DNA from: a virus
Lineage: Duplodnaviria > Caudoviricetes
Strand: one strand, 5' to 3'
DNA: 31,185 nt
Virus record (IMG/VR): IMGVR_UViG_3300030098_002072
Location: 1 to 31,185 of that record
Below the pieces are notes generated by a model. It was not told the origin of the DNA, made no database searches, and saw only the letters and a program-made list of their open reading frames with translations. A program made the translations under genes and the position numbers. Shown one piece after another: positions 2,890 through 30,983 of this stretch (within the stretch, counting starts at the first letter, position 1; the number at the start of each line of letters is the position of its first letter).

Positions 2890-3553
2890 CAGTAGGCAAC
2901 CATAAATGTCTGCAATTCACACCGCCACGCGCTGAAAAACCATCGCTCTTGATCACTTTTATCTCATTCTTAGTTAGTGGCTGACTATCTAAATATTGAC
3001 GGCATACTGGACGATTTTTTTTATCTCTGGGGCCAGAATAATTATACTTTGTGTCATCTGGTAAGTCTGCTGCCATCGTTGCAATGACACTTTGCTGATA
3101 GTTTGCGAGCTGAGTACCAATGACATTATCTATTCTTGGCACTTGAGTGCGTAAATTTGCTTTAATTAAATCTTCCATTTCAAATCTATCTAAACGATTT
3201 GCAATGCCTTGTGCCATTGATGCACGCATACTACTTGCCACAGTTCTTGAAAGTCCTTCTATGTTTGAGCGTTGTATATTCTGGAGAGCCACAAGTTGTG
3301 TTTCTGTTGCAACCCCAAAAAACGGCAAATCAGCAAGAAGAGTTTCCGTTGTAGCCATGTAGGAGTTGATTCCGGCAGAGAGGCCCAACTCTTCAACAAA
3401 ATAGGACGTAAAGTCAATCGCAGCGAGAATAAGTAGTATCTCTTCCACTGATAAACCGTCATCTTCTAACTCCTTTGTATCTGATACAAATTGCGTAGTT
3501 GCATTATCCAGGCTACTTTGATAAGCATTGATGGCATCATCAATTTGTGCCAT
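2882..3553 (-). CDS. minor head morphogenesis protein (Mu gpF / SPP1 gp7-like)
   Basis: C-terminal YSGPRD..NRPVC...RGGVNCRH motif; follows portal. Confidence 0.75.
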   Translation of the reverse strand: MAQIDDAINAYQSSLDNATTQFVSDTKELEDDGLSVEEILLILAAIDFTSYFVEELGLSAGINSYMATTETLLADLPFFGVATETQLVALQNIQRSNIEGLSRTVASSMRASMAQGIANRLDRFEMEDLIKANLRTQVPRIDNVIGTQLANYQQSVIATMAADLPDDTKYNYSGPRDKKNRPVCRQYLDSQPLTKNEIKVIKSDGFSARGGVNCRHLWLPTDV

Positions 3554-4895
3554 TAGCTAAAATATTTAATAGTTTGTTTTTAGGCTTATCTTGTTCTGCA
3601 TTTTCTGCTTGCAGATTAGCAAATTTTTGTTTGTCTTCTTCACTGGCATCGGGATTATTATAATCAAACCAGTCTTGTGGTGATGCAAGACCTCTTGAAA
3701 AGCGCCAATCCCATAACATTACTTCACTTTCCGGTGTCATTGCGTAGTTTGGCTCTAAGAAATCAACACTATAGTCTTCACCAAGGTCGGTTCTAGCTTC
3801 TACTTGTATAATTTTACGATCAATCTCATATCTGCGATGTTCCCAAGGTCTCCAGGTATCTTCAGTCATTGCAGAGCGCTCGTCAATGTTTTCCATTTCA
3901 ATGATTGCAAGACTTGCAGCACTAGGTGCATTTCCAGAATCATTGCGAGCATACTTTGCTCTAATATGGTTGTTATTTAGTGTAGACTCTACTAAGAATC
4001 TTGTGCCTTCTATAATCTCGCTTAGTGAACCACCACTATTTGTCACACCGAAATTTGCACCATCTGGAAGATATAAGATTTTATCAGTTCCGATAGTAAT
4101 ACGACTTGCGTCATCAACGCCAGAAACAAACTTAATACCCATAGCACCATACTTGATTGCAATGCTGAGTTCAAGTAAGGCCACATTGACGGCTAAATCT
4201 GTTTGCGCAATATCTATTGCATTGCCAACATAAAAATCTCGTATTGGCGGGTAGCGATGAGTAAAAGTAAACGGCAAAATATCGTATGGATTTAGATTAG
4301 ATTCATTGGCTTGTATCATTCTGCCATTTTCATCTAATAAATAATGCTGACCTGGTTGTCCATCTCTCGCTTCAGTCCAAACGGCATGAACTGGATCTTG
4401 TATGCGCGCATTTGCTTGGTATTCTACTGGATAGCAGATACCGATTGGTTTATTTGCAGGATCACCTGCTAGAAAGATAGGTTCAAAATGCGAAATAATC
4501 TCATATTCAATCTTTTGCGTAAGATCGTTCCACTTACTGCGAAATGCCATAGTGCCTAATAAAAATGTTAAACGCTCAAGTAGTCTTCTCTGCGCGTTAA
4601 GTGAATACATATCGACATAATTAGTGTAGTTCTCATTTACTCGGAGTCTAGGCGGTTTCTTGTACGTCATCGCTCTAAGTGAGCATACGCGTCTTGTCAG
4701 ATTATTCACCGGAATCACTGCTTGACGTAAAGTTTCTGGTCCGAAATAATTACCTACATAATCTTCAATATTGATTCCTTCATAGAAATCCATAAGATAA
4801 TCACGCTCTTTAGTTCTTTCGTCCTCTATGTAACGTAATTTTCTTTTAAGTGCGGATGTAACCGCTTCTTGTGACAAGTCCGGAATAGTCAGCAT
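3540..4895 (-). CDS. portal protein
   Basis: 451 aa directly after TerL; DFYEG, NLTRRV, SAASL and VDF.EP patterns of SPP1-type portals. Confidence 0.8.
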   Translation of the reverse strand: MLTIPDLSQEAVTSALKRKLRYIEDERTKERDYLMDFYEGINIEDYVGNYFGPETLRQAVIPVNNLTRRVCSLRAMTYKKPPRLRVNENYTNYVDMYSLNAQRRLLERLTFLLGTMAFRSKWNDLTQKIEYEIISHFEPIFLAGDPANKPIGICYPVEYQANARIQDPVHAVWTEARDGQPGQHYLLDENGRMIQANESNLNPYDILPFTFTHRYPPIRDFYVGNAIDIAQTDLAVNVALLELSIAIKYGAMGIKFVSGVDDASRITIGTDKILYLPDGANFGVTNSGGSLSEIIEGTRFLVESTLNNNHIRAKYARNDSGNAPSAASLAIIEMENIDERSAMTEDTWRPWEHRRYEIDRKIIQVEARTDLGEDYSVDFLEPNYAMTPESEVMLWDWRFSRGLASPQDWFDYNNPDASEEDKQKFANLQAENAEQDKPKNKLLNILANGTN

Positions 4896-4916: not shown

Positions 4917-5843
4917 TTACACATAGTCAATTACTCCCGCCATCCTAGAGCGCATTGGAAAGAGATTTACCAAGGCAAAACGCAAAGCATCATTTGCGTG
5001 ATCAAAGCGTCCATCTTTCAGTGGCATCTCTTTTAACTGCTGCTCATTTCTATGCTCTGGATAGCGATAATTTTCATATGCCTGGATACTTTCTACGCAT
5101 TTAGGTGACACAAATAGGTGCGGATCACCATTTGCATCTTCAAACCAACGTCTAACGTGACCTACACCCGCTACGACATTGCGCGTGGTAGCGTCCTTCT
5201 TATATTTAAGAATCATACCTTGCTGCTTAAAGACAAATATATCACTGACACCGCTTTGCAGTGACACGCCCGCACCTGCGGGATCGCAGAACATACCGTG
5301 AAAGTTGTAGCCTAAAGATTTGATCTTACGCGCAAAATCTTCAGTCTTGGTATTTTTCATCGCTACTTCGTCAATTTGATAGACATCTGCCATTCCGGAT
5401 GTGTTGTGTTTGATCTGGAATATTGAACAGTGTGATGCTCTGAAGCCGAAATCAATACCCGCGTATGTGGGTAGAGACGGATCGAATCTGAGGTCGTTTT
5501 TGATGTTTTGAAATCTATCAAACGGGTAAACGCGTCCTGCAAAGCTGACAAACTCCGCAAGAATTTCCTGGCGCACCGTTTCATCAGTGAGTGTTTTTCT
5601 AAGTTCATCTAAGTCATCCTTGAAAAATGGTGAAAGTGTTGATGGAAACTGCCATGATTCCCACTCTGGATATTTCTCATCTTGTCCTCTATCATATAAT
5701 CTTGAAAAGTAGTTAAATCCACGCGGTGTGGAGCAAAATAGCGCCCATCCACCACGATCTGACAGTGTAGGTCTGAGATACATCTCATAAGTATTCTTTG
5801 GTATTAAGGCCATCTCATCAATGACCAGATAATCAACTCCATC
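4917..5843 (-). CDS. terL: terminase large subunit, 3' segment (Walker B, motif C, RNase H-like nuclease)
   Basis: Frame is open from DGVDYLVIDE (5843), upstream of the ATG at 5813; STPRGFN, GIDFG, CDPAG, DHANDALRF motifs. Confidence 0.92.
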   Translation of the reverse strand, partial: DGVDYLVIDEMALIPKNTYEMYLRPTLSDRGGWALFCSTPRGFNYFSRLYDRGQDEKYPEWESWQFPSTLSPFFKDDLDELRKTLTDETVRQEILAEFVSFAGRVYPFDRFQNIKNDLRFDPSLPTYAGIDFGFRASHCSIFQIKHNTSGMADVYQIDEVAMKNTKTEDFARKIKSLGYNFHGMFCDPAGAGVSLQSGVSDIFVFKQQGMILKYKKDATTRNVVAGVGHVRRWFEDANGDPHLFVSPKCVESIQAYENYRYPEHRNEQQLKEMPLKDGRFDHANDALRFALVNLFPMRSRMAGVIDYV

Positions 5844-5895
5844 GCCAGTTTAAGTAAAGTGTTTCCCCCCCGGCATTACTGCCAGGGGGGAAACT
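5844..5895 (-). other. 52-nt coding gap in terL containing a 15-bp hairpin (candidate translational bypass element)
   Basis: GTTTCCCCCCTGGCA-GTAA-TGCCGGGGGGGAAAC at 5894..5861; removing 52 nt gives DSLIG-DGVDYLVIDE. Confidence 0.8.
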
Positions 5896-6297
5896 ACCTA
5901 TGAGTGAGTCTGGTGCGTCTGCACTTTTGACGGCTAGTTCACTGTTCAATCCTGCCATCTTCATGTAATACAAGTCTCCACTAATCTCTTTCTTGCTATC
6001 AATTGGTAGTTTGAGATCAGTCATTATAATGCGCTTGACTTCGCGAGCTATTTTCTGCGCTAAGTTGTAGTTTGGTCCCACGATCCAACCTCTGGTATTT
6101 GGTGTGAGTAACCAAGGTATGATTTCATAAGCTGCCATGTAGCTTTTACCGCTACGTCTACCCATGCAGACAACTCTGAAGCGCTTTTCGTCTTTGGTGA
6201 GTGGTCCTACGCTATGAATGGCCCACTGTTGTGGCGTTGGGTTGTACCCCAAGATCTTCCAGAGCTTTCTCCGGTTCACTATCTGCTTTACCTTCAA
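5896..6297 (-). CDS. terL: terminase large subunit, 5' segment (Q motif, Walker A)
   Basis: PTPQQ, Walker A MGRRSGKS, WIVGPNY, KSADAPDSLIG; zero-frame read-through would stop at 5833. Confidence 0.92.
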
Positions 6298-6604
6298 ATC
6301 CTGCTTCTTTTAAGACGTTCTCCAGGTTGCCGACTAAGTCTAGCTGATTCTTGTCAGTTTGACCTAAGTAATTTTTACCAAGAAAGATAAGTAGTGCATT
6401 AGATCCCATCTCCAATGCGTTCTTCCATTGTGCTTTGCGTAGGTTGAGAAGCATCTCAGATTTACCCGCTTCGTACTCTTTGGTGTAGCGCTTGCGGATC
6501 GTGGATTCATCCACCTGGAAGTATTTGCCTATTTCTACATGAGTGCAGCCGAAACTGGCAAGCATTCGTACTTTCTTTGGATCTATTAATTTTGGTTTAG
6601 CCAT
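6212..6604 (-). CDS. terS: terminase small subunit
   Basis: N-terminal HTH (CTHVEIGKYFQVDESTI), LRKAQW and LIFLGKNYLGQTD patterns; overlaps terL start. Confidence 0.8.
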   Translation of the reverse strand: MAKPKLIDPKKVRMLASFGCTHVEIGKYFQVDESTIRKRYTKEYEAGKSEMLLNLRKAQWKNALEMGSNALLIFLGKNYLGQTDKNQLDLVGNLENVLKEAGFEGKADSEPEKALEDLGVQPNATTVGHS

Positions 6605-6922
6605 CTATATAAAGTCAGTTAGTTGACAACACTTGTTTAGTGCGCGTCGCCAGTAAGTTTTAGCGCTTGATGCGCTGATGTCCAGTTTGGTAGCTATGGA
6701 TGGGAATGTGTGTTGGTTTGTGCGCATTTTAAATACAATTCTTTCGCGTTCTGACAACTGGTCATAAATGTGATGTGCGGAGAGCTGAAGCCACCGCATC
6801 TCGGTTGGAATTAAGCCGCTTTGGAAGATTGCCAGTTTCTCTTTGAACTCTGTGGACTGGTCTATTGCGTCTTCCAACAAGTCGGCATCCGCATCACTTA
6901 AGTTATGCCAAGCAGTTGTCAT
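6605..6922 (-). CDS. sigma70-region-4/LuxR-like HTH regulator (possible late-gene activator)
   Basis: LSERERIVF..R...TFPSIA..L.IS.SSAKTYW.RA; first gene of late operon; start taken as ATG at 6922 (MTTAWH). Confidence 0.7.
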   Translation of the reverse strand: MTTAWHNLSDADADLLEDAIDQSTEFKEKLAIFQSGLIPTEMRWLQLSAHHIYDQLSERERIVFKMRTNQHTFPSIATKLDISASSAKTYWRRALNKCCQLTDFI

Positions 6923-7174
6923 ATGCGACAGAATATACACAATTGTTAGTGTTCGCAAAATGGTAAAATTTTTCTGAGACGCACTACCTACCAATCCGAA
7001 ATACTGCCTTGGTGTACCCGGATTCCTGGAAGTTGTGGTTATTTATTCCACGGCCTACCGTCAAAGATTTTCGGATATGTCAACACAACGTCAACACATC
7101 GCGATAAAGTCCGCTATCTACATTTTTGATTCATCACACACTAGCAAGCTATTTATTAGGTGTTCGCTTTTTTG

Positions 7175-8930: not shown

Positions 8931-9143
8931 TCACTGGCGGGTAAATTTTTTTTTCATTTTGTTTGTCCAGGCTAGTTTCTTTCGGATGTGCCAACGCATA
9001 AAACAACCATCTAAATTCTTAACTCTAAGATCATCAAACCAGTTCAAAATTGCGCCACATTCCAGCTCGTCATCATACTTTCTTGCGAACGCGCACAACT
9101 TATCAGCGTTTTTTGAGTATTTACAAAATTCACTCATAATCAC
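8931..9143 (-). CDS. small Cys-containing hypothetical protein
   Basis: 70-aa ORF co-oriented with the replication operon. Confidence 0.55.
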   Translation of the reverse strand: MIMSEFCKYSKNADKLCAFARKYDDELECGAILNWFDDLRVKNLDGCFMRWHIRKKLAWTNKMKKKFTRQ

Positions 9144-9154
9144 TGAAAGTGCGA

Positions 9155-9385
9155 GGAATGGGAATTTGGAGAATATGGAGAATTTGACTCTCTCTCTCCT
9201 CTATAAACTCACTGCGAACATATTCTCTTTTAGCATACCAATGAGAATTTGCACTGCCTAGTTTTGCGAACAAATTCCCCATATTCTCCATATTCTCCAT
9301 ATTCTCATCGTCCGCTATTTTGCAGTTTTGCGAACAAATTCTCCAAATTCCCCATATTCTCTTTTTGCGAACGTTCGCGCGAACA
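9155..9385. repeat. 9-bp repeat array, putative replication origin
   Basis: About 12 copies of CA(A/T)ATTC(T/C)C in both orientations plus repeated GCGAAC, directly 3' of primase-helicase. Confidence 0.7.
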
Positions 9386-13524: not shown

Positions 13525-13723
13525 TTATTATTTCCTCGGTTATATCATGCTCTTTGCCATTTGTAATTCTGTTGGCAAAAAACACTTTACTGTTTCTTTT
13601 TAGTTTGATTAATTCTTTTATTTGAAACAAAAAACTTGAGTATGTTTCAGCTTCCACGATCTGATCGCACCACTCTCCATCGTAATTATCATATTCTACT
13701 GATCCTGCGTAGTTGACTTTCAC
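13514..13723 (-). CDS. hypothetical protein
   Basis: GTG start overlapping the upstream TGA (ORF track extends to 13756). Confidence 0.6.
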   Translation of the reverse strand: MKVNYAGSVEYDNYDGEWCDQIVEAETYSSFLFQIKELIKLKRNSKVFFANRITNGKEHDITEEIINAL

Positions 13724-14112
13724 GAAACTGGAAACTCCATGTATTGGTAGAACCACTTTCGCTTTTCATTTTGTGAATTTCTAGCGCGATGTATTGCTAG
13801 TGTAATATGGTTCTCATTATTGTATCTGACGTAGGCCACTTTCTCTAGTGGCGCAAAATACACTGCAATTACATCTATAGAGCGCTTATCTATATATTTG
13901 TGTAGTTTTATCTCAATACTGCTTTTGGTCTTATAAGTCAGAACAGTTTTAACCTGGACACGGTGCAACTTCCCATGACACTCAACCAACATATCTACAT
14001 TTGCGTCATCGCAGACTGGCACATATACATTTAAATCTTGATTTAACAGATCTTCAATCACTCGATTCTCACCAATAATGCCTTTACGCACCGTTGTCAG
14101 ATCTTCTCTCAT
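13720..14112 (-). CDS. PD-(D/E)XK endonuclease
   Basis: KG..GE, VDMLV, RVQVKT, D..AVY. Confidence 0.75.
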   Translation of the reverse strand: MREDLTTVRKGIIGENRVIEDLLNQDLNVYVPVCDDANVDMLVECHGKLHRVQVKTVLTYKTKSSIEIKLHKYIDKRSIDVIAVYFAPLEKVAYVRYNNENHITLAIHRARNSQNEKRKWFYQYMEFPVS

Positions 14113-30696: not shown

Positions 30697-30983
30697 TGTA
30701 CACTTTTTAGGTCCTCATACCTATGATGATAATAACACCAGTGAGTGCCTTTGTATAAAGTGGTATACCAATGCACTGTGCTATCTTGATCAATAATCTC
30801 TTTAAAAATTGTAGAATAATGAGTTGAGTCTGGATGAATTGAATGACCAGTTATTGATAATGCTTGGCATCCAATTAACACGCGTAAAGCGATAATGCAG
30901 ACAATATTTAAAAATATTGCTTCTACATAGCTATTTTGTATCAGACTTCTGATCTTTTTCTTTAATTGCATTCTCATATCCAT
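30693..30983 (-). CDS. possible exported/lipoprotein-like protein (start uncertain)
   Basis: Hydrophobic stretch ending LIGC; ATGA overlap with next gene. Confidence 0.45.
   Translation of the reverse strand: MDMRMQLKKKIRSLIQNSYVEAIFLNIVCIIALRVLIGCQALSITGHSIHPDSTHYSTIFKEIIDQDSTVHWYTTLYKGTHWCYYHHRYEDLKSVQ

Follow-up and report, generated by a model that had tools for sequence, protein, structure and literature searches.

The window, by which we mean the whole stretch of DNA analysed, is a linear virus record of 31,185 bases that is 91% complete and was found in marine metagenome runs. It carries head, tail, primase-helicase, methyltransferase and integrase genes, and therefore looks like a temperate tailed phage; no tRNA genes were found in the window. 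On the minus strand, a gene with a sigma-70 region 4 / LuxR-type helix-turn-helix (HTH; 6605-6994) lies directly upstream of the terminase small subunit gene terS (6212..6604; phrog_309, E 5e-5), which overlaps the start of the large subunit gene, terL. An open reading frame (ORF) of similar size to the HTH gene is found upstream of terS in most of the loci listed. Directly after terL is a gene of 451 amino acids (3540..4895, minus strand) that probably encodes the portal protein, as judged from its position and size, with no family match.

The terL gene of the window is encoded in two parts, both on the minus strand. The upstream part (5896..6297) has 134 codons, begins with TTG, contains Walker A (GRRSGKS) and ends with a GGT Gly codon (5898-5896), the putative take-off codon. 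The downstream part (4917..5843) has 308 codons, and contains Walker B (YLVIDE), the remaining ATPase and an RNase H-like nuclease domain. Between them lies a coding gap of 52 nt (5844-5895), a putatively mobile insert, whose last triplet is GGC (5846-5844), the putative landing codon; the first codon after landing is an Asp codon (5843-5841). A preliminary description of this DNA had placed a 52-nt gap between GGT and GGC codons on the minus strand, which was confirmed base for base, and had claimed that skipping it would give a TerL of 442 amino acids. This is borne out by the 134 and 308 residues of the two parts, which add up to 442, the length of the unbroken ORF in the insert-free loci L002 and L004. 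The parts match positions 264-360 and 362-599 of phrog_2, a single terminase profile, end to end. When compared with a solved terminase ATPase (PDB 4znj), the break falls directly after the Gly of the motif preceding Walker B, within the ATPase domain. A second terL was not found in the 91%-complete record. At the residue just before the take-off Gly (5899-5901), that structure has the Arg of an LRG motif, which we take to be a trans-acting arginine finger; all 73 insert-free genes examined encode Ile or Val at this position.

Most of the gap is occupied by a hairpin (5861..5894, minus strand) that starts 1 nt after GGT and has, as previously described, a 15-bp stem with one G-U pair (arms 5894-5880 and 5875-5861) and a GNRA loop, GUAA (GTAA in the DNA). 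It is followed by an AU-rich spacer (5847..5857, 0.82 A+U) without a decoy landing triplet. The 111-nt region around the gap had a folding z-score of -4.8, with 0 of 200 shuffles equally stable, and the 52-nt gap itself folded at -33.0 kcal/mol, compared to a mean of -9.0 for terL coding windows, none of 150 of which was as low. In the predicted fold, GGT pairs with ACU (5860-5858) beneath a bulged A. A further pairing that had been suggested, between AGTTT and AAACT at the gap ends, is not kept in L005, L006 or L185, a weak point of the earlier account.

If the gap is left in place, the upstream frame continues for 20 codons past the take-off codon to a TGA (5833..5835; ORF 6297-5833), giving a non-hopping product of 154 amino acids of which the last 20 are aberrant. 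The frame in which terL resumes is closed by a TAA (5852-5850) inside the AU-rich spacer, and no ATG, GTG or TTG lies in this frame between the TAA and Walker B, as had been noted before; to this can be added a CTG with GGAG 8 nt upstream, which is located inside the Walker B strand. Judged from these frames, no frameshift or standard restart would be able to rescue the terL of the window.

The 52-nt insert is real DNA and a present/absent polymorphism. In run X1, a possible source of the record, the insert is carried by one contig at 59x, and no contig with the deletion was found, although contigs drop rare variants. Run X13, from an independent study, bridges the insert with five flanking differences, and the terL of L003 contains the identical 52 nt in spite of 36 synonymous and 10 non-synonymous changes relative to the window. 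The insert is absent from L001, L002, L004 and L223, and contigs of runs X8, X10 and X16 skip exactly the 52 nt; X16 contains both forms. In a whole-record comparison with two insert-free relatives that are 94-97% identical to the window in this part, the insert is the sole indel of at least 7 nt within the first 7.2 kb, and the upstream terL part is 99-100% identical to that of insert-free relatives. A sequencing or assembly error was rejected because of the independent bridging, the identical copy in the diverged L003 and the exact absence in near-identical relatives.

Related terL genes were collected from 287 loci, many of them repeats of one contig, and 224 loci had both halves of the gene at usable identity. 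Of the 63 dropped loci, 59 were missing a half and 4 were distant; all were rechecked, and those with greater than 45% identity proved to be distant hits or genes truncated at a contig end, none of them with a long insertion. The 224 loci represent 124 distinct terL genes, 47 with an insert and 77 without, which is not a population frequency since the pattern searches were biased toward insert-bearing genes. The same-site inserts sought in relatives are present, with covarying stems and matched flanking codons. In total there are 35 different hairpin inserts of 24-52 nt (33 distinct elements from the main loci and two from later pattern scans), in all three frames and at three neighbouring codons, although the elements are related and counts of them overstate independence. 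Seven elements, including that of the window, are located after the first Gly (site A), 25 after the second Gly (site B) and three after the Ile next to it (site C). The G-[ED]-G-[VILC]-D residues of this stretch are kept in 73/73 insert-free genes, in none of which does the stretch contain an indel. Two size classes can be recognized: short elements (24-34 nt; 23 elements) start with a TGA inside a small hairpin, while long elements (44-52 nt; 12 elements) have a 14- to 19-bp C-run/G-run stem, whose core is shared by the hairpin of the window, and have no immediate stop.

The fold was stronger than 98% of terL coding windows in 27 of 33 elements, and in 25 of 33 the take-off codon is predicted to be paired at the stem base. 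When the long stem was aligned in a register that follows the window's own fold, 95.5% of positions were paired, with three two-sided and three one-sided (C-G/U-G) changes; none of 500 shuffles scored as high. The U-G pairs assign the stem to the mRNA strand. The window hairpin also scores as terminator-like on the coding strand (two found versus 1.3 expected), as might be expected of a transcription attenuator or RNA-processing signal that lowers expression of terL and the genes downstream. That this is the main role of the hairpin is very improbable, as sister elements (L005, L034 and L185) have tails rich in A and not in U, and restoration of the frame would be left unexplained; attenuation would be a side effect at most. 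Specific insert patterns matched terL only (6/6, 18/18 and 4/4 matches), and 10 of 71 matches to a loose hairpin pattern were terL. Several non-terL matches to the loose pattern (L341, L343, L304, L310 and L352) have long open frames on both sides and may be ordinary coding sequence. A second such insert was not found in the window when compared with the related records G001 and G002.

The codons at both ends of the gap, as far as their sequences indicate, follow the tRNA and not the DNA. Take-off and landing pairs in the 33 elements were GGT-GGC (10), GGC-GGC (6), GGT-GGT (3), GGA-GGA (2), ATT-ATC (3), GGY-AGC (5), GGT-CGC (3) and GGT-TGC (1); all six site-A elements are GGT to GGC, and the later-found L361 adds another such pair. 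Flanking codons of the 35 elements match fully in 25, differ only at position 1 in nine and differ at position 3 in one. GC is retained as second and third base in all nine codons that mismatch at the first position, and 73 of 73 insert-free genes encode Gly there. After a GGY take-off codon, none of 29 elements has a landing codon ending in a purine, whereas the Gly codon is purine-ended in 26/73 (site B) and 31/73 (site A) insert-free genes, including direct sisters of insert-bearing genes such as L049 beside L045. The third base changes from T to C in 18 of 21 GGT cases and three of three ATT cases, and from C to T in none of eight, a bias that is not predicted by plain duplication of the target. 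The lone exception to codon matching is one 52-nt long-class element found in L314, L349 and L359 (about 696-747 in L314), which has GGG at take-off, GGT at landing and an open resume frame.

The codon directly after take-off is TGA in 23 and AGG in four of the 35 elements, and where the take-off moves to the Ile codon the in-frame TGA shifts one codon later. The window has AGT at this position, a common codon in the phage (22 per 1000 codons), although host tRNA levels may differ; TTA is never the first gap codon in any element. The absence of a stop after take-off that was stated in the preliminary description therefore holds for the subtype of the window, but does not extend to the family. 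Two other take-off points were considered and rejected: an in-frame GGC near the hairpin top is not shared (L034 and L185 have AGT, L121 has GAC), and a Pro-Pro pair has no conserved Pro landing codon. Element tails are 0.5-1.0 A+U by inspection; in the window, likewise by inspection, the spacer contains no G and no G-rich triplet occurs 5-7 nt before the landing codon. GGA or GGG precedes the take-off codon in 29 of 31 site-B genes versus 31 of 73 insert-free genes; the association of AGGAG with site B was not significant on independent pairs (median p 0.125). At site-B loci (e.g., L042:2461-2475) the take-off codon is preceded by AGGAG at a distance of 2 nt and followed by TGA-C, a layout that recalls the prfB frameshift arrangement.

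Alternatively, the insert might be a minimal intron, excised from the RNA before translation by cutting and ligation in trans. For every Gly-site insert the boundaries can be placed within the Gly codon so that the insert ends in G (e.g., GG/U...G/C), insert-free sisters read GGC, which is the product of such a cut, and removal would be independent of frame. Nevertheless this appears improbable: the three Ile-site elements cannot end in G, 24-52 nt is too small for a ribozyme core, and removal gives no reason for a codon-tracking in-frame TGA or for third-base matching. No group I or group II catalytic core was encountered, the window having no Rfam match and the 52 nt forming a single hairpin. 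An archaeal-type intron is recognized by a bulge-helix-bulge, in which a 4-bp helix at the junctions is flanked by two bulges of 3 nt; none was seen in the minimum-energy or centroid fold, as judged by eye only.

Gap lengths were distributed over the three frames as 15, 9 and 9 among the 33 elements. In 18 of them, including all six at site A, the resume frame is closed by a stop in the gap with no ATG, GTG or TTG before Walker B; in nine, all of the short class, one of these codons opens the frame, and in six further elements it is open without a start; the two later-found elements also have an open resume frame. Reading of TGA as an amino acid was rejected as a general account because 18 of the 33 elements have an out-of-frame gap and because, among the short and Ile classes, other stops close 8 of the 15 gaps that keep the frame, whether these have a TGA or not. 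TerL could instead be made as two pieces, by stop and restart, or by a frameshift leaving extra residues, and the open frames speak for this: several of the nine standard starts overlap the TGA close to an AGGAG, the window itself has its CTG behind GGAG, and T4 genes 39 and 60 provide an example of a working split enzyme. In some site-B genes it is an ATG or TTG that overlaps the TGA and opens the downstream frame. We consider two pieces or a frameshift quite unlikely as the general explanation, since this route is closed for 18 of 33 elements including that of the window, other site-A genes do not conserve the CTG of the window, at which a start would split the Walker B strand, and the ATPase domain is broken within a stretch that has no indel in 73 of 73 insert-free genes. 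Restart may serve as a back-up in some short elements. Owing to the open resume frames, eight of the nine first-position-mismatched landings could have another route, L132 being the single closed case among them.

Pairwise comparison of terL genes gave median dN/dS values of 0.074 between insert-bearing genes (37 pairs), 0.10 between insert-free genes (107 pairs) and 0.083 for mixed pairs (63 pairs), although pairs share history and some divergence predates insertion. Both halves of terL were constrained, and most pairs from all-insert clades with diverged elements had a dN/dS below about 0.1. None of the 224 loci showed a second stop or a truncation. By these measures both halves of the gene remain under purifying selection, and the insert reads as a hairpin cassette that does not code, set in a terL that is otherwise intact and selected. 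The relaxed selection on an insert unique to this genome, which the preliminary description had named as the mark of a pseudogene, is not what was observed, as there are many insert-bearing relatives with the low dN/dS given above. It might still be that insert-bearing genomes are terminase-defective and are packaged by insert-free co-infecting kin, or recover by exact DNA deletion between GG repeats. Both alleles do coexist in nature and within run X16, the deletion is exact, and many insertions look recent. Against this, the 47 insert-bearing genes (of 124) show no second lesion, diverged all-insert clades retain their low dN/dS, X1 yielded one allele only (with the proviso on contigs given above), and tRNA-matched codons and compensated stems would not persist in defective genes, which together make such an explanation unlikely.

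Two features go beyond the earlier description: the insert is polymorphic, and it seems to pass from one terL gene to another. On a terL tree from a quick search (118 rows), insert class changed 27 times, and at least 20 of these changes are forced by well-supported branches. An identical 51-nt element is present in TerLs that are no more than 62% alike and have a saturated dS, and one hairpin is shared by L361 (site A) and L123 (site B), which points to lateral transfer. In two comparisons, 11 of 18 and 14 of 20 codons near the site were identical (background mean 0.39, 95th percentile 0.61), a shared-flank signal that offers modest support for transfer. Taken as sequence comparisons, these observations suggest lateral spread of the inserts by recombination. 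No endonuclease gene was found beside terL in the 26 loci listed (22 with insert), where the order is HTH-terS-terL-next gene with no extra ORF, and there was no HNH or GIY-YIG match among the window proteins. A free-standing PD-(D/E)XK_5 endonuclease gene (PF11645, E 8e-15) is located at 13720-14112 on the minus strand of the window, 7.8 kb from the terL insert. This family includes an intron-encoded homing enzyme; the gene lies in DNA that is shared with insert-free G001, and is therefore not tied to the insert.

Translational bypass between Gly codons of one tRNA, as first proposed in the preliminary description, is probably the best explanation of the window insert, and the comparative tests (inserts in relatives, covarying stems and matched codons) came out in its favour. 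The peptidyl-tRNA-Gly would likely release GGU, the ribosome would be carried past the hairpin, the peptidyl-tRNA-Gly would re-pair at GGC, and decoding would resume at the Asp codon to yield a normal 442-amino acid terminase. In the stop-less subtype the trigger may be a strong stem competing with A-site decoding. This is the weakest link, as the window copy has no stop, rare codon, mini Shine-Dalgarno or special peptide; the peptide upstream of its take-off codon is that of an ordinary TerL. A broader reading, in which these are self-sufficient mobile hop cassettes that can enter a conserved ATPase motif at three adjacent codons and pass between marine phages with no linked endonuclease, and in which the G/C-rich hairpin of the long subtype is enough to start a hop of 44-52 nt, unaided by a stop codon, a rare codon, a nascent peptide of its own or a Shine-Dalgarno, is put forward tentatively and stands somewhat short of an even chance.

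Bench dissection of long-range bypass has centred on T4 gene 60, where several signals have to act together. In the available text of the preprint by Manning and Atkins on the T4 gene 60/MobA bypass (bioRxiv 10.1101/2022.08.31.505936), the gap is about 50 nt, take-off and landing codons of gene 60 homologues are read by one tRNA, including GGU/GGC, the take-off codon lies in the 5' arm of a stem-loop, and the spacer is AU-rich without decoy codons, features that the terL inserts share. The same source gives a stop (or AGG) after take-off in most members of the family, compared to 23 TGA and four AGG among 35 here, and a site that varies by a codon and is patchy among near-identical phages, as in terL. 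The tRNA-matched codons, tracking TGA and closed frames thus agree with the rules of the gene 60 homologues, which would support bypass. As described in that text, however, the MobA cassette is found exclusively in Topo2L, as a homing-endonuclease element that splits the gene, whereas the host gene here is terL, with no adjacent endonuclease and no split gene. T4 has an element-encoded nascent peptide and, before the landing codon, a mini Shine-Dalgarno; the terL inserts encode no such peptide, the upstream part being nearly or fully identical to that of insert-free relatives and three sets of identical proteins spanning the insert-bearing and insert-free groups, and, by inspection, they have no mini Shine-Dalgarno. 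All 23 stops of the terL inserts are TGA, and Ile take-off and first-position-mismatched landings occur, unlike T4; the subtype of the window differs further in that it lacks both a stop and a rare codon and has a longer stem of G/C runs. By analogy, then, the terL inserts would work like the T4 gene 60 bypass while standing outside the MobA cassette in host gene, endonuclease, peptide and mini Shine-Dalgarno, the likeness being one of design rules. According to the same preprint the T4 gap protects against nicking by MobA, and we borrow from this the idea that the terL insert might shield against a nuclease targeting the conserved site.

Inserts of 10 nt in the terminase of Streptomyces phage phiHau3 were reportedly described by Smith et al. 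in 2013. In the accessible part of a later account (PMC10732093) they are in the same gene, the large terminase, with bypass proposed but not proven, and are 7-10 nt long, have a rare UUA as trigger and occur in 3 of 100 genes. From the printed g7/g8 sequences, our own comparison places the second phiHau3 insert in the same run-in to Walker B as here. The terL inserts differ in length (24-52 nt), in having a hairpin within the gap and no UUA, and in their presence in 47 of 124 genes. The byps of Magnusiomyces mitochondria also involve hairpins. As summarized in the introduction of the T4 preprint (10.1101/2022.08.31.505936), byps are 27-55 nt long, spread like miniature mobile elements, have a sense codon after take-off and tolerate imperfect landing codons, and in these respects the terL inserts resemble them. 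Byps, by the same summary, are read by mitochondrial ribosomes, interrupt many genes and have an A-site codon without a tRNA, whereas the terL inserts are found in bacterial-type phage, at one site of one gene, with a common Ser codon in the window. For a hairpin that alone blocks A-site tRNA binding, precedent is given by the A-site-docking stem-loops of dnaX and HIV (PMC8861025); as described in the available text, these have 11-12 bp, lie 11-12 nt after the P-site codon and cause -1 frameshifts, while the stem of the window starts 1 nt after the codon. In the same text, docking in the A site failed in vitro with an 18-bp hairpin, which limits docking as a trigger for 14- to 19-bp stems. No report of hairpin coding gaps in marine phage terminases was found in the literature covered, outside which lay most subscription journals; the preprint tables could hold cases.

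The family comprises 35 natural variants, all in the same unchanged protein context, and its insert-free sisters can serve as controls, so that stop or no stop, stem length, Gly or Ile tRNA and landing match can be separated in reporters. Should the stop-less form work, a hairpin alone can start a hop. Under standard annotation 47 of the 124 sampled marine-phage terL genes would be called broken or split although they are under selection.

No cultured phage had greater than 60% identity, the best being about 31%. The best host lead is a Ca. Marinimicrobia genome record (L185) containing a close terL with a site-A insert; no other close match was found in 401 genomes of that phylum, two of which contain 33-40% matches to the window integrase. 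Two close insert-free terL genes were from bins labelled Pirellulaceae and Schleiferiaceae. Elsewhere in the window, a cluster of direct and inverted repeats at 9135-9376 adjoins the primase-helicase gene and is possibly a replication origin, and at 30697, where two small genes meet, the G001 sequence is longer by 83 AT-rich bases.
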